A stretch of 64,000 nucleotides of DNA from Raillietiella orientalis. Its lineage: Eukaryota. The DNA lies in the NCBI GenBank assembly GCA_036172245.1, contig JAYWIR010000016.1, positions 2,294,001 through 2,358,000 of the forward strand, given 5' to 3'. Shown here piece by piece: positions 38,893 to 64,000 of the stretch (position 1 is the stretch's first letter; every line of letters begins with the position of its first letter). The notes under the pieces are model-generated. The model saw only the letters and a list, made by a program, of their open reading frames with translations, was not told the origin of the DNA and did no database searches. A program made the position numbers and the translations under genes.

Positions 38893-40712
38893 GTGTACAC
38901 AGTACATATATAAGTTTATTGATTACTCGGAGCTCGAGTTTCCCTTTCTGGATTTATTGCCCATCAAGATATTGCTCTGAGAGCCATCGGTTATTTTATT
39001 TTATTTCTTCTGTCAAAAGCGTATACACGAAGGTCGCTTCATGCCACTACTTCCACTTTGTGTGAGTCATCTCAAGGGGACTCTGAGATTTTCGTTTTAA
39101 AATGTAAAATAATGATAGCGCATTCATCGTGCTACAGATATGATGACATCCCCCCGTTTGCTTAATGGATTCACTTGAAGAGATTGATCTGCGCTAGTTT
39201 GAACAAATCATTCGAATAAACGGTCAGGCCATTTCGAATCAAGCCGAAGTGCATTCTCGTAGCCGACTTCACAAAACCAAAGTGAAGTCAGCTACGATCG
39301 GAAACCTTTCGTGATTTCCATATTCGAAGGCTTCACGGAGCAGGGGGTGAGCATCCCTTTTGTTTACGAACGGCACGAGGTCGCGCATGCTGCGCTCCAA
39401 ACAAGAACTGTGCAACCTGTGCACCGAATCCTCAAGAACAAATTGCCTGAAGAAACATCCCCGTTGCTTACTCGTTGGTGTGATTCCCAAGGACTCTCTT
39501 TCTTGAGAGCTTCCATTCCACTCTGTATTCTTCACTCTTATCAGAACTGGAACTGACCGCAGCCATTTGCCTTCCTTGTTCGTAAAGCTGTCACCTCTAT
39601 AACAACGAAATAGGAATGGAGGCTTCCTTTGGGACCACGCTCATTTTTCATAGGCTTCGTTTTTCTGGTGATGCAAGTAAAAGAATCCAATAGTGTGCAC
39701 TCAGAAATTGCTCACGCCTTTAATTTGCAAAAAATAAATCCTTCCTCCCCTCCCATTCCTCCCCAAATCATCTGTAGCATTACTATCGCAAAATTGCCGT
39801 TGCATTTCATCAGCTTGCTGAATGTCATTTCGTGCAGATTGATGTTTCTTGCAAAGAAATTCCTCATCTTGCTAGTTTTAATACCTAATCTTTCAGTACT
39901 CCATTGATTATGGCAACGTCTCCTCATTTTCATCTTCCGATCCACAAACTCAGCTCTCTGAAGGAAGCTCTGGACCTAGTGTTCAATTATTCTCATGATT
40001 ATAATAAATTATTTCAATCTGCCATGATTGAAGACCGTATCATGGCATACCTCGCAATGATCAATGCCACCATCGTCAACAATCTGAACTACAATTGTGG
40101 GAGCTCTGCACTATCGTACATTCACCGAAGTATGGATACTTTATACATCACCATGTCTGGATGCATTGTCATACGTAAGGACAGCAGTCGGTACATTTTC
40201 GTGACGCATCGACACGGTCGGCATTGAACGAACTGCAAGAGTGAGGACTCGGTGATCGGTTCATGATGTCATGCTCGCTTTCACGGCAAAAACGTTGCAT
40301 GCGAGGCTGCAAGAGATCTCGGATGAGTTCTAGGAAATGTTTATGTGGGCTATTTCGTATTCCAGCGTTCGTTTCCACTTCCAAGTTACCTGATCACTCG
40401 AGAATCCCCAGAAAACAACATTTGCACGATCCTCTGCATTTTGCCAATCCCGTGCAAAGAAAAATTGCTGCGAAAATGCTGCTGCTAGGCTTTGATTTAC
40501 GGAAGGCATTTTCAGCGTTCTTCCCGTTTGCAGTAGATAGAAATACTGCACTGTAACCGTGCAGTAATGCAGGAGTCATCTCATAGGAAACATCTAAGCC
40601 TTTGGCAGAATAGTGGAACAGCCATTTTCTTAATTCCTGCACAGCAATGATTTTTCAGCCATCATTTAATGTTCACACTCAACTTGCATGATGTGTGTGA
40701 ACATCCACGCTT

Positions 40713-40752
40713 ATCGCTTCTCGCCCTTTTGGCTAAGATCAAAGTATAGAAT
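40713..40752 (+). pseudogene. U2: U2 snRNA 5' fragment (nt 1-40)
   Basis: atcgcttctcgcccttttggctaagatcaaagtatagaat versus the metazoan U2 consensus ATCGCTTCTCGGCCTTTTGGCTAAGATCAAAGTGTAGTAT (3 mismatches). Similarity stops abruptly after nt 40. Confidence 0.9.
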
Positions 40753-43700
40753 TCTTAGTGAACTGCGTTAAGCACACAGAAAAGCATATGAGAAGGAAAG
40801 CGAAGCTACCGTTCCGGAGACAAGGGCAGAAGCATTTCGATCAAGCATGATAGAAGACAAGCGTGTGAAGAATAGGGAATAGTGATCATCTCAAAACGGC
40901 AAAGGAAGTTACAGATTCAAGAAAGTAGGAAGCTTGGCCACGAACTGATGGCTCCGAGGAAACGAACGCTTGGCAAAGTACGATCAGTTGTTTCAACGGG
41001 CTTCGAAATGGAAGGGAGAACACGAGATTAAAAAAATTTACAATTAAGCAGATGAGAAAAGTGAGGAAGCTCGCAAGCGTTTCAAATGTGGACGGAGACA
41101 AAGAATTCTGCGAGTGGAAGTGAGTGAAAACGTTGCTGCGAAGTTTTGGGTGAAGTGTGACCGAGTTCCTCATCCAGAGGCTTGCAAACTGACCGTGTTC
41201 TTGGAGCGAATCGTAGCATGAAGTTGAGAAGTTACTTATCCACCTTGGACCTCGGACCATCGATAACGGAGCTTTCTGGGCATTTAGTATCAGTATAAGC
41301 CAGTGGACAGCTCTCGGAATGACAAGAGTGAAAAACCTTATAGCGCAGATTGCACAGAAATACAACCGCTTTAAGGTGACTCGGAATACTTCTCGAAGGA
41401 TGGGACGTTCCAAGGATAAATTGTGTGAGTGCGAGTTTTGTCTTGAGGAACTGCACTAACCAAGCCGAAAATGCTTGTCTTCAGTGCTGGAGAACAAGTA
41501 CCCGAATTTCAAAGTCAGTGCTGCCAGCGTGCCACGGACCAACTGTTGTCGAATTGTCGATTCTAATCTTGAGGAGCAATGTCTTCAAGATTCTGTTTTA
41601 TACCAAGGAGAATTCAATACTCACAACAGTATCTCTTCCTTGAACGCCAATACGTTGTTCTCAGTCTCCATTTCACTTTCGCTCGGTAATGAAACGGCTA
41701 GGCGTAGAAGTGTGCGTGCCTTACGATAAACAAAAACGCGGCCCACTTTCTCTGTAAGTGATAGTTATCACTCTTCATATCCAGGACTCGTCCCAGTAGA
41801 GGAAAACTGGGGCAAATGGAGAAAGAATTTCCTTCAGGTGGAAAACGACAAGGGGCAGTATCCCACGTCACCCATGATTTGAATTTGGGAAACTGATTCT
41901 CATATTCATTGTCATTCTTTTCTGTAACATCTCGATACGAAGCAGTAGCACTTTTGCACAGATCTTTGAATCATCTGAGCTTGTACCATGCAAAGTTCAA
42001 GATCTAACCTAACAGCTAAGAAACTCTAGTCCGTTAGATTTGCTGTGAAGTTTATGTTAAAGTTGCTGAGATCATTGATCCCTTTTTGCACGTGTACTCT
42101 CCTTGGAGACACTTGTACGTCCTTCAGGACCAAAACAGTCACATGATCAGCAGGTTGAAACTGAAACTGTGTCCTCTGACTTTCCTGCTGGAAGTGTAAA
42201 TGAAATCCATCCTTTAGCTATCGTGACGGAATGCGTTCTTACTTCTCAGAGTTTTGTTGCATGTACGTGCTTCCATTTTTCACTGCTTCAGCAGAGTTCG
42301 TGTCTGTGTCTCTTTCAGAATTCATTTCTGAGAGGAAAAGCAACGAGTTTTTCCTCTTTCTTTCCTTGAAGATGGAAGACAAACAAGTGCTTGAGAGTAG
42401 GGTGTGCTTAGCAATCTCGATCGGATTCAGCGCTTTTTTGAATCATGATGTGTCTCGAAGAGTGAACTTGGTTTCTGGGATTCGCAGACAAACCGCATGG
42501 TTAGTGGAAGGGAACGGAACAAGGAAAAAGAGAGAAGTTCCTTGGAGTGCCAGCAAACTGAAAGCCAGTACTAGCAGATGAGACCCAAGAGACTGCCTAA
42601 AGAAAAATACCCCCAAAACTGGATGCAAGATAATAATTTACTTGGAGCTGTCGTCTTCCTCATAAACTGTGAGAAGACGAGCCAAATAGAATCTCGTAAT
42701 ACTGAACCAAGAATCTGTATTGCTCCCACTGCCATAGCTAAGAGCTTTTCCTAGTTTCATTTCAAAAATTTTGGAGTCTATTTTTATGCATTTTTACCAT
42801 ACTCGAGTTACTAAATTACATCCTCTTTGATTAACTTTGAGGATCAAAATCGCGGAAATTCCCGAACGCCTTTCGAGTGCGCTCCAACCACATCCGGATG
42901 GATTCCTTGAATTCAACAGGAATAAGTTTTTCGAGACCACAGTGCCGTGGACACGGAAGCACTCAGATGTCGGAACTCAGAGCTATGAGGGATAGGAAAC
43001 ATATGCTTTTTCTGATTACCTCTGAAGCTGATAATCTCATGTCTCACGTCTGCTACTAAAGTTTCTAATAAATTCCATTATAGAATCATACAAAGCAGAG
43101 TCCAATTTCCAATTTTCCAGCAGGCTTCGACAGTTCTTTCGAGCTAAAAATTCTGCATAAGGCTCTGTCTTCCGGATGGCAGACGTGTGCGTCTCATCGG
43201 AAACAAATCGGAAAGATAAGGAGTAAGGGTTCCCATGACGGCGAGTAGAAGCGGCCGAATTACTTCCGTGCTGCATGCCATTGCATTCAAACCAACAAAC
43301 ACGCCTGCTCGGATTAACGTGGAAAAGTTCTATCCGGAAATTGGTCGTTGCTTTTTATGATTCCACAATGGAATTCGTTAGAGAGTACTCCTACTCATTA
43401 GTGTCATAAATCCTTTCTGTTGTATGGACGCAAGAAAATCGTATGATACAGTGGTAGCAACTCGTCCTGTGCTCGAGATCTGAAGTTCCTGCATTTAAAG
43501 ATACAATGAGACATTGGAGTCAATGGAGTAATTTTTACCGACCTAGACTCTAAGGCTCTAATTTAGACTTAATCGGTATCTAGATTTTGGTTGAAAGGAA
43601 AATCTCAGATTCATTTGTCCATCGCAACGGCTTAGGTCTCTGCATAAACGAAGCACGCTCAAACCTGAGACGAAGAATAGAGAAGAGCAACTGTACCTTC

Positions 43701-44186
43701 GTCGGTGAGCGGCATCGATGGATGGAAGACTCGAAATAAACAAGATTCCATAGATGCGAAAAATTTGCCATATATGGAATCACGACTTGTCCTTTATTAC
43801 GTACAATCCAGTCGAATTTACTATGTGAGATGCTTTTGTTTTGTTACCCTTACTCAGTAATCCATCGTCTTGGACCTTTATGAAAGTCACAAGGTCTCCA
43901 GGATGCTAGTGAACTCTGAGAAAGGAGTTTAAATGATAATGGCAATGGCATGTGGCAAGTGCTTGACAGCCATTCGGTGGCTGTCCATAAATCGGATAAA
44001 CGGGGAAATCTATCTAAGTCTTTGGGAAGATCAGAAAAAGGTTGATTTGTTTGTCATCATGATGATGATCCCCGTACGCTTGAGACTTCCTGGGGTTGCC
44101 CCGTTGTTTGATTGCTCAGATGTGTGGAGGTCACGTTCATTTGAAGCTCACTTTTTCTGGACAAATCATTGTAACGTTTCTCCTAG

Positions 44187-47100
44187 TCATGCTGTCTGGA
44201 ATCATTCTGATGGAAGTTGGTCTCATCAAAGTCCACGATTTTTTCGTAATCATAACGGGCAATGCTGTGCAGATCAGTAAGTGCCTCTTTGAAAATTGCA
44301 CTTTGAGGAGAATTCTGAAGAAAATAAATTATGCCTCACTAAATCCCTCGTAATCTGATGTAAATCACTTCCAATCACTTCCAATTCACTTCCACTTGTG
44401 TGTTAAAAGCGAATATGATTGTGACTTTATTAATGATCGGAATGTTCTTTTTGCAAGATTAGGGATTTTGAAGACAATAAAATTTGCACATACTATTCGT
44501 CCGTGGCCTCTTAGACGAGTATTGACGGATACTATCCAAAAATCATATTTCTTGTATTTCAGTGACTGGCGGATTCGCTTATGTTTGCATAGGATTTGCA
44601 CTGAATTGGGGTGAAGATATTTGTGGTTTCTTGGGAACCTCACTGTGGTTTCTCATACCTTCTCAGTATACATTCCAAACTCATAGCTACATAAGTGGGC
44701 TCAATGACTCTGAAAAAATGGATTACAAAATGCAGAGTTATGCGGGAGTTCCTGGATTTGCGTTTTATTTTTCCCAATCCTTAGCTTTTACTCTGATAAT
44801 AACATCCGTGACAGTAGGAAGACTAACTTGGTTGGCATTGTGTATACAAGGATTCTTTACCACAGGGATCCTGTATCCCCTAATGTCCCATTGGTGCTAT
44901 CATTGGGAAGGATGGATAAGGAATGGAGTGCTATTTTTCAGATTTATGGTAAGGTTTATTCATTTGTACGATTCGAATCCTGCGTGTGTATTTCCCGATC
45001 GACTGATATATCTGGAATTCAGTTCAATACAGGTGTCGAACCTTTATTCGTGCAGCACATATTGCTTCGTCAATCCTGGTTTCTCCTGTTCCGATTTACA
45101 AGAAACAGAAATCAGGATACGTCGAAGCCGAACATGTCGGCCATCTATTCAAAAAAAAAAAAATCAGATTTGGAGTTTTTTAAGTGGAAACTTGGATTGA
45201 TCTGATGATGACAGTTTCAGACTCGTCGTGGTTCATGGGTTGATAATTAGGGGTCAAGTTTCGATTCGCTTAGAGTGTAGGGGTCAGTCGGGAATTAAGG
45301 TATTGGGCTGCTGTAGGTTCCAGCCTTGGCTTTTTGGGTGGAAAAGTGAATGAATATACCATGGGCGTTGCTTCGCAGGTGAATGGGAGGTGGAAAAAAA
45401 AAAATATCGAAAGTGAATTGTTCCATCGTACATAGTCTCGAAAGAAAATGAGAAGGCGGTTTCGCTGGAACGATGCAAACTCTGTCTGGAATTGAAATAG
45501 TAAATGGTCTGTGATAGGAAATTCCTACTATCAAGATGAGTCTCTTAATGGCAGTTTAAATGAGAGTTGAGATTCGATGTCGGGGAAGTAATTCGGAGTT
45601 GGAATATTCGTCAGAAGAACTTCGGTATCTGGAGATCAATAAAGCCGAATGGGGTAGGAAGATTGGTGGAGAAAAGCACAGATGATCAACGTGAAAGATG
45701 TGCATGCGGAAGCCTCCTCGCTTGCATTCGGAGCGAACGCATGCTGGCTCGAGGCAATCTGCCATCAAGAAGCGTGCAAATTCGAATTGGCGACAAATAC
45801 CACAGTAGAAAAATTTGAACGAATCCGTAGAGGAAAGCTGAATCGACGGTGCGGTTTGTAATTGTGGATCAACGAGATCAAGAGACGACCTCAAGTATTA
45901 AAGGAAACATTTCTGTGATTCCGAGAACCCACATGCTTTGGCCTAAATGGCACTAGAGAATTCATTCTACCGTTTCCTGTAACAGTTGTGTTGTATACCA
46001 TTGACAACATCAACCTAAAGTGCGGAAATTATGTCCCAGTTCTTAAATGACACGATTTAGGCAGTCATCTTTAATACTCACTACTAAGTACAAGGAACCA
46101 CTCTTGGGTCTGCATCGTTCCGAGAGAAACGGCCATCAATCCTATGATGCGGAGCAGCACTTCCATTTCCAGGATTAACCTCTTATGTGAAATGATAGAC
46201 AAATGTGTATCAGAGGCTATGAAGTAATACGAGAAACCATCACAAATGGATGATGGCTTCTGAATATGCGACATCACTCTTTAGAACAAAACGGATGTCC
46301 GGTTATTGCGGATGGCGCGTAGCTGCCAAAAAGGATTGCTACGAAGGTTGGATAGGAACGATCCCTTAAGAGTCGAATGAATTCGAAATCCTTCTGCAGA
46401 AAATTCTTGTTTATTGCCTGCTTCCGTATTACATTAGTATCTGACCTGATCCTTTGTAACGGGAAAGGGAACGGGAACTAAATTCGCTGGCAGCCATCAC
46501 CTGGGAAAAGCGCACGCTACCGAAATAACAGAAATGGATTCGTTTCCACTGATGTTGCATATAGAAAATTTGAATCTATCATCGATCATCACAAATTACC
46601 ACTATTCTGAAAATTCACTTTGAATCACGGAAATATGGTTAAAGATCATCGATTACGTGAAGCATTTTGCATCGGAGATACAGAGAATCTACCTATGCAT
46701 CCATCTATTAATCCCGCTCGTGAATAAGAAAAACCAAACAAAAACACTGGAACTGTAAATTCGCGTTCTAGTAAAAGTATGGAGAGCAAACCTTTCAATG
46801 GCTTCTCACTTTTGAGAATTTCAATGCACTACATTTGTCTGATAAAAGATGAACTTCATCTTAAACGAGTCATCGGCTTTCCTGATTCAGTATTCCCGGG
46901 TCCCGCTGCTCCAACTACAGGGATTTCATATGCATGAGCAGAGTAGCTCTTTGCTCTCGTAGATAGCAGCAACGACTAGCAACGACACTGCCATAGGAAT
47001 GGTCAAAAGCAGAATCTAGTTGTGGTTTCGGGAATTTGAAGACAAAAAGGGTACAGATGCATGGGACAACGGATACAAAAAGAAGCGATGTATATGTACG

Positions 47101-50100
47101 GACCGTAGTCTCCAAAGTTCAGTAGTATGATAACATCGATATTTCCCAGTGAGGAGACGAAGTGCTCCTCTAGGAATTGCGCACTTATTTGGACATTAAA
47201 AGAGCTGCTGCATTCGAGTCTTGAATGACTGAATCTCCAGAATGAGCACAGAACTCTTGGTTCGGAAAGGAGGAGAGTAGGAGTTTCTGGCGTCTGAGAA
47301 ACGCTTGCTCTCCCTTCTTTCCGTGCCAAGGGTTCCAGAAGACATTTTAGATCCGCACAAGACTGGAGATAGCTGATTTGAGTGTGTAGAAGAGTATGGA
47401 TGGAATTTCATAGAAATCTCGAGAGCTTCGAGTCACTCACTACTTTTCACAGTTTCTCATCCTTCACTTTCGCACAGAGATTGATTGTGCAGAGCAAGTA
47501 GCACGAATTTAAGCAGCTGAAGCAGCAGTTGCCATTACTGCATTTCCTAGTCTCGTGATCAGTAGCGAGAGCTTTCTGTTGGGTGCCTCTGCTTAAGAAC
47601 TCGAAATCTATAACATTCCGGTCAAGTTCCCCCCCCCTTTCCCCCTGTCCCCCCCCCCCCCAAAAAAAAAAAATGGCATAAGAGGATCACTTGATCTCCT
47701 TGTGCAAACTCCAGACCTGAATCTGTAGCGGGAGTTCTCGGCGACAGCATGAAAATTCAATTCCCATATACACCATGTGCGTCCAGAGTACCACACAAAA
47801 CCACAAAGGAAAACCTCTCTTTAGGGCTCCTGATGCCTCCCTGTCTGTGCAACTCTTTGAAATTCGCTTTGTGGCTCTCATGTAGGTCGATGGCTCACAA
47901 GAATGATACTTCTTGAGAGTATCTCATTGTTTTATTACACTTTCCTCTCCTTGGAAAGTGTAATAAAACACTGAAGCATTCTCACTCAAGGTAAAGCACC
48001 TACATGCCATTCTGTAAAGTGAAAGCACATTCGAGGCAAATAAAGACAGCATCCGCGCTTTGTAGTGTTGACCACTGAATGATACATCGTCGCACTCCAA
48101 AGAAAGCACCGTCATCATCAGTAATTTTCTGGACATATCTCGAGTTTGGTGGATCCTAGCAAAACAGCCAGTTCCTTGATGAAAGGAAACTGAACTTACT
48201 AGCAGGATAACCACAACTGGATCTGTACCGCACACACAGCTTTGGGGCTTGCTCTGTGTGCAAAGCGGTACAGACTGACCGCATAATCATTGCTATGCAT
48301 CGGAGGGTGGGAAGGTATGGTAGGATAGCACTGCGTTCTTGAAAAACCTGCACAACCCGCACAAGTCTTAAGGAGCACGTGACGTGAATATACGAGCGTT
48401 GACATGGGTCTGGCGTTTGGCCGACATGACACGTGTTTTTTCTTTGACGCAGCAAACCAGCCAACGTGTTTAGCCATCACAAATGCACTGGTGCATTTGT
48501 GATGGCTAAACACGATTGTGTTGAGTTAATTTAAGTTCAGCGACAGCACAACCTTGCCGGCGCATTCTTCGTCGACATCTTCACCGCTGCATTTTAGGAT
48601 AGGGGAGGAGGAGCTGTTCTGCACGCGACTGCTGGAGCTTCCGCCTTGAGTGCTGCCTTAATCTTAGGTAGAAGGAATGTTACAAACACTGGATATACGT
48701 ATGCCTCGATCCCGGCAATGGGCCCAGGTTTCTGTGTATTAGGTAAATACAGAAATTAGCGAATTTCTATTTTTCCGGACATTTTGCTGGCGATGATGAC
48801 TACTTTGTCGACACAACTGTACTAAAGATAAAGTATGTGATTTTCAGTGTTATGTGTGTATGTCCAAATTCGTTTGGAAGAGCAACTAGGAGGCAGACAA
48901 ATCGTTATGCTAGGAACTCTCAACAGAGCAGCCACTTCCTCAACGAAAAGAAAGAAAGAAGAGTATCTACAACTATCCACAGAAACAAACAGATGGAAGT
49001 TAGCATTAGTTGAAGAAGCGTGCGCTTCATGAAATTGTTTTCGGGTAACTAAACGCCTCCCTTTCCTCTGAAGAGAATTCTAAGCTCGATAGCATCAAGC
49101 TCTTCAGGAATGGTTCGATAGAATAAATGGACGCGGTAAAGAGTTTTCCCGGGTCGACACCGTCACCGTCGTTTCGTCGTTTTTGCCGCCATCTTTAATC
49201 TTGATTCACTACCATCAGGAGGCATAGCGAAATCCGTAAATTTTACGCAGCCACAACATGGAGATTCGAAATGAAAGTGCACACCACTATGAGGCGATCA
49301 GACCAACTTCCTTTAAGACTTATCTTGAACAAATCAGCAAAGTCGTCATTCGTGGAAGCTACCTCAGGACAGGAACTAAGACGTTTTTATTTGGAAATGG
49401 AGTCGTGGAACATTTTTCCGTATAACGTTTCTGTGCAAACGAAATTCCTCGATGCACTCCGCGGAATTGACATCCTGCTCTGGCGTAACTGCATGAATTG
49501 AGTGTTTATCTTCCATGGGTGGATGAGCATCCTGCTACAGCTACAGGTAGTCGATGCATTCTGCATTGACTGATCGGAAAGAAACATTGCTTCAGAGTCA
49601 TCTGCTTGTCACAAAACCCAGCGGGAGGCTGTTTCTGCCACAAGGCATTGTATGCATGCCTCCGGATGCTCCAAATGCATGTTTCTTCGGAATCGCACAC
49701 ACATATGCAATTGGTACCTATTCTTGTGTCTCTCTTGGATGTTATGATATTTTTTAAGGGTTGATGCACGGATATGCACAAACGCCTCCGAGCTTGAACT
49801 CTATATATGCACACTAGTGTAGCAGGACATGGGTGTTGCCTCATGAGCTGTGAACAATATTTTCCGACAAATCGCTTAGAATCCCTCTTTCTCTCAACAA
49901 GGCCAGTTTGCATCTGTAGTCTCTATATTTGTCGAGTCCACAATGTTTGTGAGGTTTCTCGTGCCAAGCGTGCACTTTCCTTGCTAATTATGGTGACCTT
50001 ACAACCTTGCCATTCTTGAGACACTGCCGCGGACGAGAAAGGTGCAATATGCATTCAGAATCCACTTTCCTGGTGGTGTTTCTGATGGCAGGTGTTTTTT

Positions 50101-53100
50101 TTTTTTTTTCTGGAATCTTCAGGTTTCATCATGCTGAGCATTGCCTATATGATAATCAACGGAGCTTCCAACGTGAGATTATCCATACTGTGTGCAGTCG
50201 ACGCTATCGGACTCTCAATCATGAACACCCTCGTGGGGTGCTTTGGAGGAGGCATTGCCGCAATGTTCCTGTTATCTTGTGTGCACCGTCAGAAGGTGGA
50301 ATCCTACCCACAACTGATGAGGGTCATTTCCTGTTCCTTAGCTGGGCAGGTACCGGAGCATCTTCTTAGGCCAGTTGTATTAACGCATTGCTAAGGTTGC
50401 TGTGAGTGCTGGATGCGATACATCACGACCTATCTTTTCTTTTTTCATTGCATTTGTGGGAGGAGTGCTTTGCTTTTACTGGGCAGAATATGTAAAAGAC
50501 AAATATGGTATTGAAGATTCCATGGACAGCACATCAGGTAAATTTTAATTTCTTTTTTGAAGTGCGTGCATGACTGGAGGAATTCGGGACTGTCTCTTAT
50601 CTAGAAACTCCTTGATTAAAATCTCGCTGATTCGAGTCAATCCTTGGTTAGCGATTCTTTCATCTCGTTTTTATGTCCAGAATCATTCCCGTTACTTTGC
50701 CATAAAAAGATAAAGGCAGATCAAATCTCTGACATAGCTAGAAGATTATCCGTGCTTTTGCTCTCCTCCCAATCACCGCTCGCAGTCCCTTCTTTCCATG
50801 CTGATGAAGATAACAACCGCACCGTAGTAGGAAGTGATGGAGTTCCCTTCTTGAAGAGCTCTGAGTCGATCGCTGTGATCTTCGCACTCTTGATGATGAT
50901 GTGGTTCCGAACATATGGTTTGTCTGTCCCGTTTACGGGAAGACCTGCTTTCTAAAAAAGTCATGAGTCTATCAAAAAATACTTGACATTGTTTGATCTC
51001 GAAAATTCTCCCACTTTACTGAGGACTGCTCTGGAACATACGAAATAGTGAATTTTCCTTGATGGAGGTAAACACCAACATGCTCTGAATACATCGTTAT
51101 GGCATCTGCACAGGTTGTTCTTGTGAGTAGGCAAGGTAATTCTCCTAAGACCCTTGACGACTGTTCAGAAGATAACAATTTCTCCAAACACTGAGATGTA
51201 CCGATTCATCGTCCAGAGGTGTAGTGTACACGAGTTTCCGAACGGGGTTTCTTCGCGTTGGAAAAAGGCTGTGTTTTCGCTCTTTGGACTTTGGTCCAAA
51301 GAACGTTTAGATAAATAACAGATCTGACTTTGATAGAGTCGTCTGGTGCACTCAACTCTGTTAAGTGAATAATTGCCCTTGGACACATAACTAACTAACA
51401 CATAACTAACACAAAATGATTACATGAGATAGAACTGGAGTTGAAGGAAGCAAGAAAAAAAAGAGGGAACAGTGCACCATAAATAAACCAAAAGATGAGA
51501 GTTGTGAAGAGAAGTGCCGTCTAAGCATATCATATTAAACTCCGCAAGATGTGGTGCATCCTAATTCTGGTGCTCCATAGTCAGTCGGCATTAAAACAGC
51601 ATGTGCTCATGACCTGTCCCAAATTCGTTCTTGAGAATGGGACTAGAGGGAAAGAATTGATAAGGACAAATCAAACTTCACGAAGACTGCGGTTTGTGGT
51701 CCGAAAACGTTTCGTAAGAAAGAATACCAAGATACAAAGACCATGAAGTGATCCTCCATGTCCTTATTGGTGGCAGCTAGAATCTAATGAGAAGCAGAAA
51801 CACGTATATGGAAATAATCGTGGAGTCTGCTTCTAGCATTGCAGAATATTGCCAGCTTCGAAGATCGTAGTGGCGGAAATTGCTTCGTCCAAGGATCACC
51901 AGCGAGTGAGACCGATTTCCCGTGTTTCGATCGGATTTCCATTTCTGAGCAGCTGAGCGGAGCTGCTGTGATTAGGGACTGTTTCTGTAGTCATGGAAGC
52001 ACGTGCGATGATGCGATAGCATTCAGGATTCGTTACTTAGGAATGGCCATCCTGGAGATATTCCACTTCATGATGCTCCTCTAATACTGGACCCGATCTT
52101 TACTTATTTTAGGCTATAATGAAACTGTTGAGTCCTCTCTTGCATGGCATTTTAGGCCGTCCGTGCATTTGAAACGGGACTGTGGAATTCAGAAAAATAA
52201 GCAACAAACCATTAAAAAAAAGAAACGGAAGGCTATAAGTGCATTTCCGATTCTTTTTTTTTTTTTGCTAATGCAAGAACGCTTTAGAGATCTTTGATGC
52301 TAAATGGACCTTCGTTGCTGTTTTTGGTTTACGCATTTTTATCACCATTACCAATCGCCTTGTGAATCTCAGGACTGGTGTATTTGGGAGGTGTGAGTAA
52401 GAATGAATCTTCAGGGTGCATTTGCTCCTCTCTTGACGTCATCCTCTTCCTAAACTGTCCAATGTTTACGGATTTGCACTGCTCTATTGCCAAGCTTGCA
52501 ACTGAAAAACGTGAAATGAACTCTCTCGTGGCAAAGAACAAGGAACTCTTCTTCCTCCCAATTGAATAATACAACGCATCTCCATTAGGAATCCTCAAGC
52601 GTGGACTGAAGGGGTCGTTTCTACATGAGAATCCTCTGCTTGCTAGGTTGCCCATGAAAACCCATCATGCAGCACGTCTGTCGTAAGAAAAAGAGAAGTG
52701 CTGAAGAAACTTGCTTTCCGAGAAATTTCCTCTGAAATTCCTGGAATTCATTATGCACGAAAGTTTTGCGATTTCCTCTCTCTGAGGAGGTTGGCATTTT
52801 CCCGCGACGTTCATCTCTTGATTCAGTTCGCCGTCCGCGAATCTTTAGGGTCTAGTTTTCTTTTAGAGAAGGTCCTCCTTGCAGTGCGCTTTTTTCCTCG
52901 GTCGATTCCATCTTCCTTTTCGAATTTCTCGGTCTCTTGGTTGTCCTCCGTCTTTGAATGAATGACAACATGAGATTGCACAAGTCGCCTGGTAGGTGTT
53001 GTATCAGACAAGGGCGATGGACGGGGTGCAGAGGTAGAAAACAGCTCGCAGTAGTGTAGTATGGCTTTTTTTACCAAGTATTATAGAGTCAGAGTGGACC

Positions 53101-53567
53101 TGATCATACAGGAAACATCAGCTTGTTAGTGTTCTGCTGGAAGGGCGGAAGAATGGCTCGAGACAGCTTGCGCTCTCCGTGCATTGCTTTGGTAAATGTT
53201 GCATCTGGGTAGAGGGTTCTATTTAACAGGTCATTTTCTTCCTGGGATATGGAGTGCGCTGATCAGTCCATTTACTAACTTCAATCACACTTGGGTGGAA
53301 TCGCTGACCACATTTGCTTGGAATTCCATAGCAACCACTTACTTATGTGCGTTCGCATTTTTTTCCATCTGGTGCCTGTTGTGTTTGCTGGAATTCTACG
53401 GAGCTTTGCGCCTCCGTGTTGAAGACATTGAACACACGGAGGCGCTGCACGATCGAGACATACAGAAGCGCTTCCAAAATGAGATACCGGAAGCGATGCA
53501 GGGAAGAGTCATGAATCTAAAAGTTATGGCGAAGGAAACCAAGCAAGGGCCTGTTCCACCAAACTGA
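44187..53567 (+). CDS. Amt: Divergent ammonium transporter (Amt/Mep/Rh superfamily). Exons about 44187(or 44120)-44276, 44563-44948, 48598-48742, 50123-50349, 50396-50537, 53230-53567; true 5' end uncertain (about 43.9-44.1 kb)
   Basis: Phase-consistent splicing yields Amt motifs in the expected order: MLSGIILMEVG, GGFAYVCIGFALNWG..GFLG, GILYPLMSHWCYHWEGWI, DRGGGAVLHATAGASALSAALILGRR, INGAS, IMNTL, SLAGQVAVSAGC, GIEDSMDSTSGHFLPGIWS. AATAAA at about 53659. Confidence 0.88.
48465..48514. repeat. Perfect inverted repeat, 24-bp arms with a 2-nt spacer, inside an Amt intron
   Basis: cgtgtttagccatcacaaatgcac-tg-gtgcatttgtgatggctaaacacg. Confidence 0.92.
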
Positions 53568-56500
53568 TGATGACTTCGAGAAATTCCCAGCCGCAATCCA
53601 CACAGCTGTTCTAAAACTCGAAGTAATCAGCATTTACAAAAAGAAGTGTTCCTACTGTAATAAACATACCTGCACCTTAAAGTTTAATTTAAATAGCCGT
53701 CGTAAAGACATTCATAAAAGATTTATTTCTAAGCTTTCTCCGCTTTCCGAAGGATGCAAAAAAATTCCAGGAAGCGGACGCCTTGTTTCCAAGGTCCATG
53801 CTTAAAGACATTTTCGCTGTTGCAGCTACTTGTTTTTTTAAAACCCAATGGGATTCTATGACTAATCCGAGATCCCTTCTAGGGTAAACGAGATAATACG
53901 CACATATAATTGAGCACACGTAAATACGTGTGTGCACGTTCAGTTGCATAGATCTGTGACGGAATGTAAACGATTTTTAAGTGTGCAGGAGGTCACCATC
54001 CATTCAGAAACTGGAACGACCAGAGCCGTCGTCATCAGCGAGCCAACAGATTTGTTGTCTTGAGATCTACTCGAAGTCTGAGGCAGCGACCAGAGGTCGT
54101 ATGCAAATTGTGCCCAACTGGCAATACAGCGATTAAGAGGAGACGGAAACGAGGAATTGTGTCTCTGTATAGAAGTGAAATTTCTGCCCCTGTGTACTAC
54201 AGGGACCAAATTTGACAACCTATGCGTTACTTTTCTGGAACGAAGTTCTTCGTGGATTTGCTATCATCAGCCTGTCATTCTGTTTCAAAGAAATCCATGC
54301 TGGAAAGCAAAAATCGAATCTCGATGTCTTAGCTCATAACTCCTCCATGAATGAAACTATGGGATATATCGCTTCAGGAAGAAAAATATGTTCCAGCACA
54401 TATCGCAACAGTCCAGTAATTCTTTGATCCCCTGATGACGCAATTCTTTGGTATTCTTTCAAGACGAATACGGACAGACCTCTATTCATTCTGCAAATGG
54501 AGGGTGTGAGATGCAAAGCAAAAAAAGACATGCTTAGAATGCTTTAGAGGTCTTCCTTTTCGTGTCTTTCTTTGGCTGTCGCCTTTTGTACACCACTGAC
54601 CACTGCAGTGCATCTAATGCGGTCGTGAATCACGAGCACGCCGTACTTACAGAGCTATGGAAAAGTCACACCACAGTGGTCACAAAACTCATTTATTGCT
54701 TCTACAACACCTCAATCACATACTCTAATTGAATAATACATGCAACTTGCTGTAGCATCCGAAAATCCTCGCCTACAATCATTCACTACAGTAAACCGAT
54801 TTCGGAAGTTACGAAAACTTGAACCATTTTGACAATACTGCTACAAGAAGTGAGGTCCACTGATTCCGAATCTGAAGTACTCTAAACAAGCACTGTATTG
54901 GAAAACTCAGGTGGAACCAAATTGTTTTCTTCAGCTTCCACCGAGAGTCAACATTGACTCATGTGGCCTATGAAGCTTATAATCTAAAGTTATATCTAAA
55001 AATAGCATCTAATCGAATCCAAACTTTCACTCAGCATGGACATCAGTTCACCAGCTCTCTACATTTTAGCCAAACGCCTTCAATTTTTTACTGCATCAAA
55101 GTATTGAAGGTAGCATGCTTTCTCTTTGGTTACAAACTGTAGGAAACAAGAACGAATAAGCTTACAAAGCTTCCCAGTAATCCTAGAGCCTGCATTATTT
55201 GCTGCTCTCTCTATAGCTGATAGGAAACCTTCCTGTGCGCATCCCCACACAGGGAGAATTCAGCCGAAATTAACAAATCATTGGCCTACTGATTTGTCAC
55301 TTTGCACTGTAAAGTGCTCAGTCATTTCCACTTCGTGCCACCATTGAAAAATCTGTAATGCTATCCAATCTGGGATATTTCAAGTGGTTGCAGAAAATTA
55401 GGTGCAAAAAATCTTCCTAAACTGTTGATATCTATGCACAGTGCTATTCAGCTGTCCTGTCTTAAACGCTGTGGCATGAAAACTAAGCAAATGCTTATAT
55501 TCCTTTGCTGTTGCCTTTTCTGTGGAACTTCACGTCTCCAGAAACACATCATCGAAACTCTTGCATATCTCCGTCCGTTTGCTCAAGTCATCTGTTGCCA
55601 AGGTTATGAAGCGAGCATGAGATTCTCTTCTCCTTAAATTGTAATTAGTGAATCATCTCGAATTATGGTTCCATAATTTGAGATCTGGACCGTGAACAAA
55701 TACCGATGCCACTGGCGACTACTTGTGTGTAAGCAGCAGAAGATTCACACGGTTTTCGAGGAGCCGTCTTTACTCTGAGATCGATCATGCCATGTACCCT
55801 TCGTCATTCTGACGTTTTTAAACGGTATACTCATCTGACAAAATATCATCCTCATCTTCCTATAATAAGGGAAAGTAGAAAACAAATAATCGATTTGAGA
55901 AGAGGTTCTGACAGTCTTTTGGAGCACACAGAGTTCGCGCGACACTTCATAGAACGGAACTATGTCTGAACCTATCGAGAGATGTATAGTATCCTTTATA
56001 AGCTATGCATATGGTACAAAGCAAACACCTCAAGGTCTACATTTAAAAGCTTCGACTCGCATACTCTCAGTTGCACTGGATGTAATGACCTATATTTTTA
56101 CCAAAGCAAACTTGAATATTTCGACTTTCTCATTTTCAGTGTCCTGTTGGAGTGTAGTCTGCATGGCAATTAGTTCCAGTTTTATCAGAACACACACATT
56201 ATGTACATCGGACACTGTTTTGAGCAATAAGATGAAGCTCCCATTCTCTGTCGAGGGAGCAATAAAGTGCAATGAAGTGTTATTCGATTTCATATCTTTG
56301 AAAGGAGTTTGTCCGATGTGCTTTTAGCAGAATGTCTTTGCTTTGTTTGTCACTCCTAACAGTTAATGGATTTTTTGGTCTCCTTGCACTTGACGGTATT
56401 CTTCAGCGGTATTCCTTTGGTACAGTAGCCTGATATTCTTACTTACGTCTGTTAAAACTGTATTTATCCTTTTGCCAACAAAAACGTGTTGGCTTTGCAA

Positions 56501-58591
56501 GTTTGTTGCATACTAGCATATCCCCAAAATGTGCTCATTATTTTTGACTTGCCGATGCATAAATTCAGCATCTGCTTCCTACATCTGGGAGTACTTAGAT
56601 ACTCTTGGATTATTTAAGTTTCTTCCTAAGTACCGAGGTTAGTATTACAGCATTTTAATGTTGTAACTTCCCTCATATACATCTTAAAATCCATCATATT
56701 TAATTTAAAGCGCATAAATATTGATTTTTGCTTTATTGTGAGGATGCCTTCATTCCTGAATGAATAAAAAATTGGCCATCGAAATATAGGGATGGACAAC
56801 ACGAAGGGTATATGCAAAAGGAAAAAGTTTACAGGTTCAAAAATGTCTTCACTTTATGTTCATTTGCTAAGAGCTAACAGGAAAATTTCTGTCTAAAATG
56901 TTTCTGCAGATTTAATTGATTGTCGAACAACCACTTATTATCAATTTTCGACAACCGAATACGTAAAGTGCATAAGCAAATTCAACTGTTTACATTCGAA
57001 AATTACATGCATTAACTTCCAGCTGTTCCGTTTCTGAGGTTTTTCTTTTGTCTGATGTTATTATTCGATCCACTGTGTTGCTCTAATGCCGTTTTGTTCT
57101 ATCTCTTCCACTCTACACGCTTATCCATTAAGCCTCCTAGGTCCACCAAATGGCATCACAGAACTTTTGCCATCTCCTGCGTTCGTCCTGCTATTGCTTC
57201 ACTGGCCCATGGCCCCTTCACAATTCTATCTGAGTCACGAAACAGAAGAGAGTGAAAGAAATAGCTCGATCGATCGAAGATTGAGGTCAACAAGGTGGAA
57301 GCAAAGAGAGAAAATCGGCACAGGCAGTCACGTGGACAGGTCCCCCGACTTTGCTTTCCAGGTAAAGATTGGGCGCATCACTTTGCTTCTCTTCGGATTA
57401 GAAACTTGTGTGTCTGCCTCTTTCCCCATTAGGTTCTTGAAAGCATTAAACTTTATCCTTCACATAGCCCTCTTTGGCAGAGGGAACCTCGCTGAGCACC
57501 CTCGGGTTTCTGGCAGCTGGAGGATCTCGGGTGGTTCGAACGGCTGCTCTTCAGCCGCGATGCTTGCCCGACCTCGTGTGGAGAGCCTCCGACGGGTTTG
57601 GTGCTTTCTGTGCTCTCAAAGTTTGGGATCTCGAATTTTGGGGTTGGTGCCGCCGAATTCGGCATTGACTGGGGGAGGAGGATGGGGGGGGGGGGAGGGT
57701 AGCTGCAATCCTGCCTGATTTCGGTCAAAAGCAATCGTTTATTGACCGGGAAAATGAGGGCCATTCTGCAGACATCGGCCTATGAATATCAGGTTCCTAT
57801 TTCCTCTTTATTGTGCTTTAATGAATATTAGTTAAGTTTTCTACCGATCACTTTCGATACCATGGACGTAAATGTGAAAATGGTTTCCTGGTTGCTTATG
57901 AGTGTTGAAGAAATGAAACCTTTTTGAATGAATCTAGATGTGTTTAGCTGTGAAGTACATGTGTTTGTTGCCCTTTATTTAAGAGCAGTGAGATTTTGTA
58001 ATGTACTAGGGACAAACTGGCAGGAATTCAAGTTGTGGGACTCCTCTTTCCAACACTAAGAGTTATGATTATGACCCTTTGTAAATGTCCTTTAAGTTAA
58101 CCATCGCAAATGATGGTTTTGGTGGATATTTCCAGGGGTAAGATACTTTGTTAAGACAAAAAAAAAAAAGCCCAGTTAACGAAAAAGATTTGAACACATG
58201 TATATTAAGCATTCATCAAGCACCTGAAAATTAAGTATTAACTGAACATTATGTAAAAGTGTGAATTGATCAAATGATAGAAACCACTAGATCACTTTTG
58301 TTATTATCATCTACGCTTAGTTTTGAATTTGGCTGTTGAAAGTGTTACTGCCTATTGCCGCATTACTTTAAAACTTAATTTTCGGTCTGAATTGTTCAGT
58401 GTAACAGCAACTGGATATGAAAAATATGGTAGGAGTAATAACTAAAATGGCAATGTAAGCATCCTTATCAAGAATTCTTCCATGATTATGAATGGATATC
58501 ACACAGTTCAGGTTATTAAAAGAGTGCAGTTTTCCAGATTCAGTTTCAAATCTTTACTTTTCAGCATGTGGTAATTCCGTGAAGTTAGGGA

Positions 58592-60766
58592 ATGGCTGAA
58601 ATAATGGATCCTGGATTTGATTATAATGGTAACAGATCATCAGTTCAGCTTCCACATGTCTCTGACAAGCATTCAAGAACAACCCTTGATGAGATAAACA
58701 GAATGAGAGAACACCATGAATTGTGTGATGTTACCTTGAATGTTGGTAACAGAAAAATTCATGCTCATAAGTACATATGTGTACTCATTTTATATATCAG
58801 ACTTTAATCGGTATTTAGAGTTATTTTATCTTCATGCAGTCCATATTTTCGAGCAATGTTCACTGGGGAATTGGCTGAATCCAGGCAGACTGAAGTGACC
58901 ATCAAAGAAATTGATGATCATGCAATGAAATTACTGATTGATTTTTGCTATACATCTCATATAACTGTTGAGGAAAGCAATGTGCAAACCCTGCTTCCTG
59001 CTGGTACAAGCATGTTAATGGTTGTCATTTAGCTGATATTTGCATAGCTTGCTTAATGCAACTGCAAGAAGTTCAAGAGGTGTGCTGTGAATTCCTCAAA
59101 AGACAGTTAGATCCTTCCAACTGTTTAGGAATTCGTGCCTTTGCTGATACACACTCTTGTCGTGATTTATTGCAGATAGCTGACAAATTTACTCAGCACA
59201 ATTTTCAAGAAGTATGCATGCTCTTAATATATTGAATGTTGATGTTTAGAGCCTTAGGTGATGGAAAGTGAAGAATTTCTGCTTTTGCCAGTTAATCAGT
59301 TGATAGATATTATTTCTAGTGATGAATTAAATGTAAGATCAGAAGAACAAGTATTTAATGCTGTAATGTCATGGTTGCGGTATAATATTGCTGACCGTAG
59401 ACTGTATTTATCACAGGTATGCTTCCAGCTCATGTTGCATATTTGATGCTGCTGCTTATGTATCAGGTGCTTCAGCACGTTCGCATGCCTTTGATGAGTC
59501 CTAAATTTTTAGTAGGCATTAGTTCTGATTCTCTGATTAAATCTGACGAAACTTGCCGTGACTTGGTAGATGAAGCTAAAAATTATTTATTACTACCGGA
59601 AGATCGGCCCTTGATGCAAGGACCCAGAACACGTCCACGAAATCCAGTAAGAAAAGGAGAGGTATTGATCGCTGGTAAGAAATAGCAGCAGCAATATCTA
59701 TTATTTGAGTTGCTATAAACAGTAGGAGGTTGGTGTAGTGGGGATGCCATTCAGTCTGTAGAAAGATATGATCCCCAAACTAAGGAATGGCGATTGGTGA
59801 CCCCTATGTCCAAACGAAGATGTGGAGTAGGAGTTGCTGTACTTAATGACTGGTTGTATGCAGTAGGTGGCCATGATGGTCAGTCGTATCTGAATAGCAT
59901 TGAAAGGTAAATTTTGACACACAGTGAATGGAGAATATCCTGATCTAGATATGACCCACAGACCAATCAGTGGAGCAGTGATGTGGCACCAACAAGTTCC
60001 TGCCGTACTAGTGTGGGCGTTGCTGTTTTAGATGGTTTTCTTTATGCAGTTGGTGGACAAGATGGAGTGTCCTGCCTCAGTGTAGTAGAAAAGTGAGCAT
60101 AGCAGCAGCAGTTTATGACTGTTATTGACTGCTTATTAGATATGATCCCCAGAAGAATCGTTGGTCACGAGTGTCATCTATGAACATTAAAAGATTAGGA
60201 GTAGCAGTTGCTGTTCTTGGAGGTTACCTATATGCTGTTGGAGGATCTAATGGAACATCTCCTCTTAGCTCTGGTTGGGAATTTATTTTGAGGGTTGGTC
60301 ATCATTAACTGTATCAGTTGAAAGATATGACCCCCGTACCAATCGTTGGACCAACATGGCATCAATGAACACCCGAAGAAAGCATTTAGGGTGTGCTACC
60401 TACAATAATTTTATGTATGCTGTAGGTGGACGTGATGATAGTACAGAACTCTCTAGTGCAGAGAGGTATAATACTCAGACTAATCAGTGGAGCTCAATTG
60501 TAACAATGAATTCTAGAAGAAGTGGGGTAAGTGGTTTGCCTGAAATGTTGAACGTATTTTATGTCAAATAGGTCGGTTTGGCTGTGGTTAATGGACTTTT
60601 GTATGCTGTTGGTGGTTTTGATGGAAGTGCCTATCTAAAATCCATTGAAGTATATGATCCAGAACAAAAAAAATGGAAGATTGTTAGCTCAATGAATTAT
60701 CGAAGGTTGGGTGGTGGTGTTGGGGTGGTCAAAATACTCCAACATGATACCTATATGAGGGAATGA
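58592..60766 (+). CDS. dbo: Kelch-like protein diablo / KLHL20 (BTB-BACK-6xKelch, Cul3 adaptor). Exons 58592-58770, 58819-59003, 59048-59211, 59258-59416, 59467-59674, 59723-59906, 59949-60092, 60140-60273, 60318-60526, 60572-60766
   Basis: [65 protein letters not shown]...[25 protein letters not shown] linker. Kelch repeats: [60 protein letters not shown], then [10 protein letters not shown]. All nine introns are GT-AG and in phase. Confidence 0.96.
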
Positions 60767-62165
60767 TAGCATTGGACAGTGGGTATGAGGAACAACTTCT
60801 TGCATTATGTGATCAGGGTTATGAATCTCAGTTTCAAATCATGCTTATCCATCAAGCTATCCTTGTAAATGGCCTTAAATATAAATAAGGAATCTATTTT
60901 AGGATGCTTTTTGGAGACATTTTATTTTACTTAAAAAGTAGCTTGCTGCCAGTTCCAAGCATGTTGTTTGACTATACCCCATCATATTGTATTTTTCCGT
61001 ATTTATATTCTTGAATAAAAGTTTTAAGCGAAAATTTTAGGTATTTTTTGGCCTTTGCGGTCATGGTAATTAAGCCTTATTTTTGAAACTGCTGTTAATT
61101 TAATAACACTGACTGCTGGTAACATTTAGAGTCATCGAAAAAAATTTTAAGGAACGAACTAGTGTATGCAGAATTCAGGTGTATAGAAGCGATCAATACC
61201 ATAAGTATGTGAAACGAGATCAGCTCCCAATTGAATCTGCTATTCCGATGGAAATACATCGGCATTGATCTGATAGGAAACCGAATTCATGTACCACCCC
61301 AGGCGTAATTCTTGCTACTTAAAGAATTAGTATAGGGAGATAATCAAAGGCATCTCCCTTTTAGACGAAAAGGAGAATCAATACAGGGGAGCGGAATGTA
61401 CACGAGACGGTCCATCAAGTTAAAGAGAACCGGACATGCTTTATTTAGGGAAAAGCCGAAGTCAGCATTCGTCTTATTCCAAGGGTTTGGTAGTTTAGAG
61501 AAAACGACGCCAGCTCAAAGAAACGGACATTTGGTGACGCTGCAAATGACCAAAATACGTGAGGGAAGAAAAATAACTGTCTGTCTAAAATTTGCTTCCA
61601 TTAATGTTCCTATGAAAGTGGAAAGCGTGCATTTGTTTGGTGGAGTTAGGCAACGCAAGCAGCCGAGTTGTAGAAACAGAAGGCTAGAAGAAGGACTGTG
61701 GAGTGTAAGTAAGCTTACTTGTTTTGGAAGGGCCAGCTTTATTCACAACCAAGCGGGCCCTAAACTTCTCAGAACGTTACCGAAGCAGCCAAAGAGCTGA
61801 TTTCAAAGATTCGTGGGTATCACAAGCAATGATTTGGCACAGAATGGATTCAGAGATGCTTTTAAATCACGAAAATGTAGCGGTAAAACTGACATGGGAA
61901 CAGACGAGACGTGGTTCTCTTTTATTCTGATGAAGACTAGCGAAAACAAATGAAGACCTCAACGAACTCTTTAAGATGCTGAAGTTGGCCTTTCGAATTG
62001 ATCGTTCACTCTCAAAAGCATTTCAATTGCATGAATGATGATGATGCTTCAGTGCAATAGGTGCACAGTTCTGTACAATTAGGGAGAAGCCACTGGATTC
62101 GAAAGATTTGAGATTGCTTCCCGTATTTTGAAATCCAGCCATGAGAAAATCGAATTCTTAGCCAT

Positions 62166-62378
62166 ATTTTATTTAACTCATCATCATCCAGCATTAAATA
62201 TCAATTTTTAATTAATTTCACTCTGATACAAAACTAAACATATACTTCTAGTACTCCCATAGTCAAATTCAACCATATTTCCTTGCACATAGCAATCATT
62301 TTATTTAACTCATCAGCATCCAGCATTAAATATCAATTTCACTCTAATACAAAACAGAACACATATTACTAGGACTTC
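62166..62378. repeat. Imperfect tandem duplication, about 80-90 bp unit, copies starting 132 nt apart (62166 and 62298)
   Basis: attttatttaactcatca(t/g)catccagcattaaatatcaattt...cactct(g/a)atacaaaac occurs twice. Confidence 0.85.
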
Positions 62379-62456
62379 TAAATCATTAACTTACAGCCAA
62401 CCTAAACAATTCATTTCACACGAAAGTACCACCAGCACACATGGGATGATAGCCCA

Positions 62457-62509
62457 AGCCACCAGATAGGTCGCGTACCAGATATTAAGCTGATAAGAAC
62501 AGATTCTAT
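62457..62509 (-). pseudogene. U2: U2 snRNA internal fragment (nt 34 to about 69-85), lacking the 5' end and the Sm site
   Basis: The minus strand reads atagaatctgttcttatcagcttaatatctggtacg, matching U2 stem IIa. It is followed by gcgacctatctggtggc, a possible stem IIb. No Sm-site AUUUUUG follows. Confidence 0.88.
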
Positions 62510-63061
62510 TGAATTCACAGAACGGTACATGAAATTTAATGCCGCTCGTCCTACATCCTTATTAGTTGCCTGATTTTGTCATTCGCACCACTACAAAGAT
62601 GTAATTTGGGAAATCTGTGGCGAATGTGTGATGCGGAATGAGTTCAGACTCAAAGAACTTGAATTCCACACAGCATAAAAAATAAAATCATGGAAGAACG
62701 TTGGTTGAAGCAAGCAGAAATAGGTGAATGATGAACCAAATTGGGAACGATGTTGAAAACAACATGGACATTCTCTATGGTAAATAATGAAATCTTGGAA
62801 TCTAGAAAGGAGGAAACCTAACACGCTACAGTCATTTTTCGTCTGGATGCCCTGATCCATGGTTGTGCTCAATGAATGTTGCGATTTCCATGACGAGTAA
62901 CCCTTTTGTAAGTAAGTGATCTGCTGTATCTTTGAGTATATATTCTGCATTCTATGAATTGAATTGAACGCTCTTTATTTTGAGACATTTTGCATTTTTT
63001 TTTCTTTTGGTTCTCAAAGAGTGCTGAAAAACCGTTCGCCTCCTTAAGAGGGGAATTCACG

Positions 63062-63658
63062 AAGCTCTTTAACACTGTCTCATGCCACCCGAGGGTGCAT
63101 GTTATCTTCACGTCAGAGTACCCTGGGAAGGTACCTCCCTATGAATCCAAGAGGCTCTGGAGAAAGGAGTTCTTTCTTCTTACTTTTGGGAGGAAACCCG
63201 TAAGGGAACCCTCGCCCGAGCTGTCTCCGAAGGGAATCCCGAATGGAACCGTTCCCTCGTTCTCTCCAGATGGGTCCGCCGGAGGGGGTCCACTCATTTT
63301 CTTTCCGAAGGGAACTCTCAAAGGGATCGCTTCTTGTTTTTATTCCTGTGAAGGGAACCCCAAAGGACGCTTCCAAATTTCTCTAAAGGGCCGCTCCCCG
63401 AAGGGAGCAGCGCGCTTCTTGACACACTGGATCTCCATCCAGTCTTGGGGGTCTTCTCCCCTAAGGAGGAGGATGGCTCCATTTTCAAAACCGGAGGGGA
63501 ACCCTGAAGGGAACCGACTCCTTGATTCTTGGAAGCATCCCCGAGGATCGACTTCCGATCCCGGCCAGTTCATGGAAGCATCCGGTTCCCACCAGTGCCG
63601 CATCCGACGCTGCACGGACGTGTCTTTCGTTCGCTCCGCGCCCGGTGTGTCGACTTCT
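63062..63658 (-). mobile_element. Copy 2 of the GC-rich interspersed repeat at 38.1-38.9 kb (diverged, opposite orientation, no tRNA-like head visible)
   Basis: Collinear shared blocks: tgcggcactggt..aaccggatgc..ggccggga; agtcga..cttcca(a/g)gaatca(a/c)ggagt; tcccctccggtt; tggattcatagggnggnnccttcccngggtactc..tgaaga..caccctcgngtggc. Confidence 0.75.
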
Positions 63659-64000
63659 TTTTCCTAAGTGGTTTGTGTGGATTCGGTGGTGACGAAGGAA
63701 GCAATGCCTGACACCACCACCAACGAAGGCAGGGGAAAGACGCCCTCATCTCCCCCAGAGGCTATGAAGGTGGAGACGTGCGCCCCCACAGAATCGTCCC
63801 TTGAGCCAGCGAGGGCTTGGAATGCGTGACTGCGGCCCTGTCGCCGGCAGCCTGGCCGAACAGAAGGCCTGCATTGAGGAGGGCTACAACTAGTCCTCTT
63901 CTACAAGGTACTCCTCTACACTTATATAGTCCGGAGAGCGCGGCCGCCTTGTCGAAGGCGATGTACGCTCACAGCGTACAACAAGAGCTTCGTGCGATGA

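Follow-up and report, generated by a model that had tools for sequence, protein, structure and literature searches.

Two pieces of a U2 pseudogene on opposite strands

We analyzed a stretch of 64,000 nucleotides (64 kb, hereafter the window) of the Raillietiella orientalis genome (assembly GCA_036172245.1, contig JAYWIR010000016.1, positions 2,294,001 to 2,358,000 of the forward strand), with the focus on two pieces of a U2 small nuclear RNA (snRNA) pseudogene lying 21.8 kb apart on opposite strands, and on the inversion that may have separated them. The 5′ piece at 40713–40752 (+) corresponds to U2 nt 1–39 and the 3′ piece at 62458–62509 (−) to U2 nt 33–84, the region of stem-loops IIa and IIb; both assignments were based on the Rfam alignment and on the sequence. 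The 5′ piece uses 40 bases for nt 1–39 because a single A is inserted after GAUCAA, and it carries the substitutions G12C, G33A, and U37A. The original prediction had read 40713–40752 (+) as nt 1–40; the coordinates stood, and the numbering became nt 1–39 in the Rfam register, with the extra A as an insertion. The 3′ piece, predicted as nt 34 to about 85 at 62509–62457 (−), was likewise present, with its Rfam extent adjusted to nt 33–84 at 62509–62458.

The Rfam U2 model (RF00004) matched 40713–40814 (+) with 28.8 bits (E = 5.7e-4 in a 501-nt search), the confident part of this match being model positions 1–39 at 40713–40752. The second match, at 62508–62458 (−), scored 40.1 bits (E = 1.1e-6) over model positions 34–84, and the A at 62509 represents U2 position 33. 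When the whole window was searched at E ≤ 1, U2 accounted for 2 of the 15 Rfam matches, exactly the two pieces, and mir-124 was the sole match at the gathering level. Both pieces scored below the RF00004 gathering score of 46 bits, as fragments should, and neither gave the full-model match at this score by which a functional U2 would be recognized. No Sm site and no 3′ stem-loops III and IV were found in the 3′ piece, in which the U2 likeness ends at nt 84.

Functional U2 carries an intact branch-point recognition box, GUAGUA, and the same consensus was seen in the Rfam alignment. In both pieces the box reads AUAGAA, the heptamer ATAGAAT standing in the place of the canonical GUAGUAU, with the substitutions G33A and U37A at otherwise invariant U2 positions. 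In the best explanation, these two changes in the box, together with the others, had already made the U2 copy a dead one (a pseudogene) when it was split. The left heptamer lies at 40746–40752 (+) and the right one, inverted relative to it, at 62503–62509 (−). The overlap of the two pieces by 7 nt, with the doubly substituted ATAGAAT in each, had been predicted and was borne out by both the sequence and Rfam, in the register of nt 33–39.

As mere sequence, the 7-mer carries no signal: the window contains 13 copies of ATAGAAT or its complement, and a local alignment as good as the shared heptamer was obtained in 663 of 2000 shuffles. The signal above chance lies in the same U2 register and the same two substitutions in both pieces, for which we roughly estimated a chance of about 2e-4 for two independent copies diverged by about 10%. 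The shared double substitution therefore speaks for a common origin of the pieces and for changes older than the split, and the complementary extents with the 7-nt overlap thus most simply make the pieces two halves of one copy. Separately, an exact metagenome scan with a 20-mer composed of the heptamer and U2 nt 40–52 returned one locus, apparently bacterial coding sequence with no Rfam matches, and it was set aside as a chance match.

Shared substitutions are also explicable by a common master copy. The two pieces might be independent members of a dispersed U2-derived family, either a short interspersed nuclear element (SINE) of the SINEU kind or pseudogenes of an ATAGAAT master, one of them cut at the 3′ side and the other 5′-truncated, with the overlap arising by chance. 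Crocodilians do have SINEs whose heads are short U2-derived segments, and copies mobilized by long interspersed nuclear elements (LINEs) are usually 5′-truncated, as described in PMC4494074. However, the window holds only the two U2 matches and no second copy of either flank, and a copy keeping nt 1–39 only is not a normal retroposition product. Neither a poly(A) tail nor a flanking direct repeat was found, the best candidate duplication around the restored pseudogene being equalled in 394 of 2000 shuffles. The odds of a chance overlap of 0–15 nt are about 1 in 5 by our own estimate; moreover, SINEU is reported from crocodilians only in the account given in PMC4494074, and nothing links the window to crocodilians. 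Altogether, we regard an origin of the pieces from a U2-derived family as unlikely.

Junctions and the interval between the pieces

The sequences adjacent to the two junctions have no similarity to each other in direct or inverted orientation, which is at odds with the proposal that the pieces form the ends of one element family. The best end-to-end similarity of the junction flanks is a 7-mer, and 355 of 2000 shuffles reached the same. The predicted arrangement GAATTC-n3-5-GAAC was indeed present at both junctions, but it did not exceed chance (355 of 2000 shuffles, or 308 of 2000 when the heptamer was included). GAATTC is frequent regionally, with 33 sites in the 28 kb between 36 and 64 kb.

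Two perfect 8-bp palindromes were noted at the junctions: AGAATTCT at 40748–40755 spans the left one, and TGAATTCA at 62510–62517 abuts the right one. The base rate of such palindromes is 0.004 per position. They are the kind of trace left by hairpin opening at broken ends; we treat them as a curiosity, because the left one is partly the heptamer itself and GAATTC is common here.

Other structures lie close to the pieces. A hairpin with a 10-bp stem at 40669–40704 (+), 9 nt upstream of U2 nt 1, has a folding energy of −15.2 kcal/mol (z = −2.8; 3 of 200 shuffles fold as well); its arms hold GTTCAC and GTGAAC, and GTGAAC recurs 7 nt past the left junction. Immediately past the 3′ end of the right-hand piece there is a tandem duplication at 62159–62376; its unit measures about 131 nt, and the identity is 79% by BLAST, with sub-blocks at 98% and 82%.

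Only one significant similarity links the two junction regions, and it lies outside both U2 pieces. It is an old inverted repeat pair with the left copy at 38293–38858 (+), 1.9 kb outside the left piece, and the right copy at 63063–63606 (−), 0.55 kb outside the right piece; the two are 66% identical over 595 columns (38293–38858 against 63606–63063). They matched no protein or RNA family; both copies may stem from an old repeat family, or the pair may be tied to regional fragility. Degenerate TTCCCTTCGG-like motifs occur within the pair.

The pair has the same orientation relative to the nearby U2 piece on both sides. This suits an old inverted segmental duplication in which the 560-bp repeat was copied together with a spacer and the U2 pseudogene, complementary deletions occurring later in the two U2 copies. 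The spacers, however, measure 1855 and 554 nt and are without similarity, and two separate deletions would have had to leave exactly complementary parts. The private changes also disagree, being about 5–6% in the U2 pieces versus about 17% per copy in the repeat pair, for which our own binomial estimate gives a joint probability of about 0.002. We therefore hold the segmental duplication to be very improbable.

Upstream of the 3′ piece, at 62517–62550 (−), a 501-nt search gave weak matches to Rfam models of group II intron domain 5 (E = 0.097 and 0.98), which might suggest that a group II-like intron joins the parts of a split U2 gene, or that U2 harbors a group II intron. The matches score far under the gathering thresholds (19.5 versus 53 bits and 16.5 versus 40 bits) and are missing from the whole-window Rfam list at E ≤ 1. 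The upper helix of the domain 5-like stretch, as aligned, has no loop, and the stretch folds no better than its shuffles (z = −0.56; 53 of 200 fold as well). Only 8 nt separate it from the U2 piece, which leaves no room for domain 6, and the U2 box itself is mutated, which likewise speaks against a group II intron. We regard the intron as refuted by the whole-window list and the fold test and assign it a vanishingly small probability, and the domain 5 likeness was judged a chance match.

The interval between the pieces consists of host-type DNA with no recognizable element genes. Pfam was run on the 120 open reading frames (ORFs) of at least 70 aa found between about 36 and 64 kb (28 and 92 ORFs in two batches), so that the interval was covered by these ORFs throughout and by a read-through of its first 3 kb. 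The only matches above the families' own cut-offs were the ammonium transporter (one ORF), BTB, BACK, and Kelch. None of the 120 ORFs matched a reverse transcriptase (RT), transposase, integrase, or endonuclease family, and the read-through of 12 frames (six each of 40753–43754 and 62510–64000) gave no Pfam family at E ≤ 1. The predicted absence of an RT or transposase ORF beside either junction thus held in the ORFs, in the read-through frames, and in Pfam. The search for tRNA genes, as heads of tRNA-derived SINEs, also found none.

Among the contents of the interval is a KLHL20-like block at 58637–60757 (+), detected by tblastn and by the Pfam BTB, BACK, and Kelch domains, with Kelch repeats about 185 nt apart. 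It covers residues 14–583 of a 584-aa KLHL20 in a single 2.1-kb stretch read in frames 2, 1, 3, and 2; since nearly the full coding length lies in one block with three frame changes, we take it for a processed pseudogene, i.e., a frameshifted, intronless retrocopy. Two weak ammonium-transporter-like ORFs at 44526–45197 and 50086–50391 (+), within 44526–50391, matched Pfam PF00909 with E = 2e-7 and 1.4e-3, and no PDB or database relatives were found for them. The GC skew is mostly positive within 40–62 kb (9 of 11 windows of 2 kb) and negative at 34–40 kb and 62–64 kb; such a pattern is expected for an inverted segment in a skewed region, but with so small a sample we do not take it as evidence.

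Origin of the split

The layout of the two pieces points, with a probability of roughly 55%, to a small inversion of about 21.8 kb that ran through one dead U2 copy and split it by a staggered break. The broken end of the 5′ piece points inward and that of the 3′ piece outward, and reversing 40753–62509 restores a continuous U2 nt 1–84. A 7-bp stretch of unique sequence is present as an inverted duplication at the two ends, with unrelated flanks. Both features are those by which an inversion is recognized. The opposite strands exclude a simple insertion, which would put both pieces on one strand. The unrelated junction flanks speak against two further routes, recombination of two element copies and replicative intramolecular transposition. 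The predicted interruption of one altered U2 copy with a 7-bp duplication thus remains the best reading of the two pieces.

In the proposed course of events, one U2 pseudogene of about nt 1–84, its branch-point box already mutated, would have preceded the rearrangement. A break inside it would have been staggered by 7 nt (U2 nt 33–39) and its overhang filled in, and the segment of 21,750 bp that now occupies 40753–62502 would have been rejoined in reverse to a second break. The outcome would be nt 1–39 on the plus strand at one end and nt 33–84 on the minus strand at the other, with the heptamer at each. The origin from a single copy, the single inversion event, and the staggered cut as the source of the 7 bp are all suggested by the layout. 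In the staggered-break model, filling in the stretch between two offset nicks leaves a copy of it at each end of the inverted segment, the two copies being inverted relative to each other (PMC1885836). As reported there for the Drosophila melanogaster group, 17 of 29 inversions had inverted duplications of non-repetitive sequence at co-occurring breakpoints, which were attributed to staggered breaks; the shortest of these duplications was 46 bp and the median 321 bp, with a range from 46 bp to 1.9 kb.

Several observations weigh against the inversion. The un-inverted arrangement was not seen, the basis being one 64-kb window, and the copy number of the flanks was likewise seen within the window only. 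The opposite strands do no more than double the odds against a random layout. At the second breakpoint there was neither an inverted duplication nor a clear microhomology (1286 of 2000 shuffles reached the observed score). With 7 bp, the duplication falls below the 46-bp minimum reported for Drosophila and is nearer to the size of a transposon target-site duplication (TSD). At most a few bases separate the break from the reported Utopia/Keno site in U2 (nt 38/39), a coincidence that a plain inversion leaves unexplained, as it does the palindromes at both junctions.

The position of the break and the size of the duplication would be accounted for by a site-specific cut, in which a Utopia- or Keno-like endonuclease or a Dada-like transposase made a cut in the U2 copy staggered by 7 nt. 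An insertion could then have been followed by rearrangement and loss of the element, or an aborted integration could have been repaired as an inversion. The U2 junctions of the non-LTR retrotransposons Utopia and Keno lie at nt 38/39, the TSDs are 0 bp in arthropods or 20 bp in reptiles, and the disrupted genes lack their first 38 bp, according to PMC4640811; the properties of Keno were taken from this source and from PMC4494074. The overlap of nt 33–39 ends within one base of this junction (PMC4640811). Dada transposons make 6–7 bp duplications in multicopy small-RNA genes, have no terminal inverted repeats, and can swap the duplicated target for other sequence on one or both sides, which could explain the altered heptamers (PMC8869645, PMC3706591). 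Retroposition has been active in the interval, as the KLHL20-like retrocopy demonstrates.

The retrotransposons nevertheless agree poorly with the details. The 3′ flank of Utopia begins at nt 39 with a TSD of 0 or 20 bp in the account of PMC4640811, but the U2 register extends here back to nt 33, with 7 bp duplicated; a 3′ flank starting at nt 39 is obtained only if ATAGAA is assigned to the element. An RT with a restriction-like endonuclease, as in Utopia, or an apurinic/apyrimidinic (AP)-like one, as in Keno, was not found upstream of the 3′ junction in six frames of 62510–64000, where the window ends 1.5 kb past the junction. The target box was, furthermore, mutated before the cut.

The 7 bp suit Dada in size, but one copy is inverted relative to the other and lies 21.8 kb away from it. 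No transposase family that could represent its DDE transposase was found between the flanks among the 120 ORFs by Pfam, whose coverage of the Dada transposase was left unchecked. Short sub-terminal inverted repeats, which in Dada stand equally far from the duplication and of which one also occurs in the target gene by the rule given in PMC3706591, were not recognized either, the best end similarity being the 7-mer matched by chance so often, and neither terminal nor sub-terminal inverted similarity of the junction flanks went beyond chance. Among the Dada lineages described in PMC8869645, we came across none that targets U2.

For either kind of element, the opposite strands require at least one additional rearrangement, and no element protein was found in the ORFs or in the 12 junction read-through frames. 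Hence, a target-specific mobile element as the cause, as the original prediction had it, was not supported, given the opposite strands, the host-type interval, and the lack of an element protein in ORFs and frames, and a site-specific cut in U2 appears improbable to us. More speculatively, the 7-bp duplication could have been left by the cut of a U2-specific nuclease or transposon not yet described, e.g., a U2-targeting Dada-like lineage with a replaced ATAGAAT on both sides, whose action ended in an inversion and for which the GAATTC-centred palindromes would be traces of hairpin processing; we consider such an agent highly doubtful.

If the staggered-break inversion is correct, the locus offers a cleanly resolved micro-inversion, the breakpoint of which is readable to the base only because a recognizable small-RNA pseudogene was cut. 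Comparative studies of this lineage could use it as a marker; as an event, it would add one more case to a familiar category and come as no surprise. More weight would fall on it only if many breaks were found at this U2 position, in which case a novel element or nuclease directed at U2 would be indicated.

The left part of the window and comparison with known systems

The composition of the window changes sharply. Most of the part from 4000 to 36000 has 52–70% G+C, with dips to about 45% near 8–10 kb and 20–22 kb, and the part from 36000 to 64000, which contains the U2 pieces, has 37–49%. The GC-rich left part shows long ORFs in all frames, and among the 24 longest that were scanned, a bHLH domain was the only Pfam match above the cut-off. 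It belongs to a single-exon BHLHE22/23-like ORF at 5566–6408 (−) (bHLH domain, Pfam E = 1.3e-16), the database relatives of which match the bHLH domain only, about 30% of the query. Searches with the bHLH and Kelch queries both returned domain-level relatives only, from across animals. A mir-124 precursor at 19416–19484 (−), scoring 56.5 bits, lies about 13 kb from the BHLHE22/23-like ORF; the content of the window is that of an animal genome. In vertebrates, MIR124-2 and MIR124-3 lie near BHLHE22 and BHLHE23, and the linkage of mir-124 with a BHLHE22/23-like gene may be old.

Among the known systems, Utopia (NeSL-related) and Keno (Tx1) resemble the locus in that a U2 copy is interrupted in the region of the branch-point box near nt 38/39, as described in PMC4640811. 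In contrast to their insertions, the locus holds no remnant of an RT or endonuclease, its 3′ piece starts from nt 33 and not from nt 39, and its overlap is 7 bp and not 0 or 20 bp. Its flanks, moreover, are separated by 21.8 kb of host-type DNA and lie on opposite strands. The likeness to Dada, as portrayed in PMC3706591 and PMC8869645, consists of the duplication size of 6–7 bp, the lack of terminal inverted repeats, and the possibly altered duplicate on both sides. Unlike a Dada insertion, the locus shows no transposase, no significant sub-terminal inverted repeats, and no element body between same-strand flanks.

The SINEU elements, which are SINEs with U1- or U2-derived heads, have a short U2 5′ segment followed by unrelated sequence, for which the SINEU-1J head and the 32-bp head of SINEU-3 described in PMC4494074 may be compared with the left piece. 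Here, however, there is no poly(A) tail and no second copy of a body in the window, and a SINEU origin would leave the complementary 3′ piece unexplained.

The inversions of the Drosophila melanogaster group (Ranz et al. 2007, PMC1885836) differ from the present case as reported there in the length of their duplications, the shortest being 46 bp versus 7 bp; the inversion proposed here is also very small, about 21.8 kb, and its ancestral state was not seen. Were it confirmed, breakpoint duplications might be as short as 7 bp, far under the Drosophila range. In both cases, a unique sequence that was once single is found inverted at both ends of the segment, and no repeat is common to the breakpoints.

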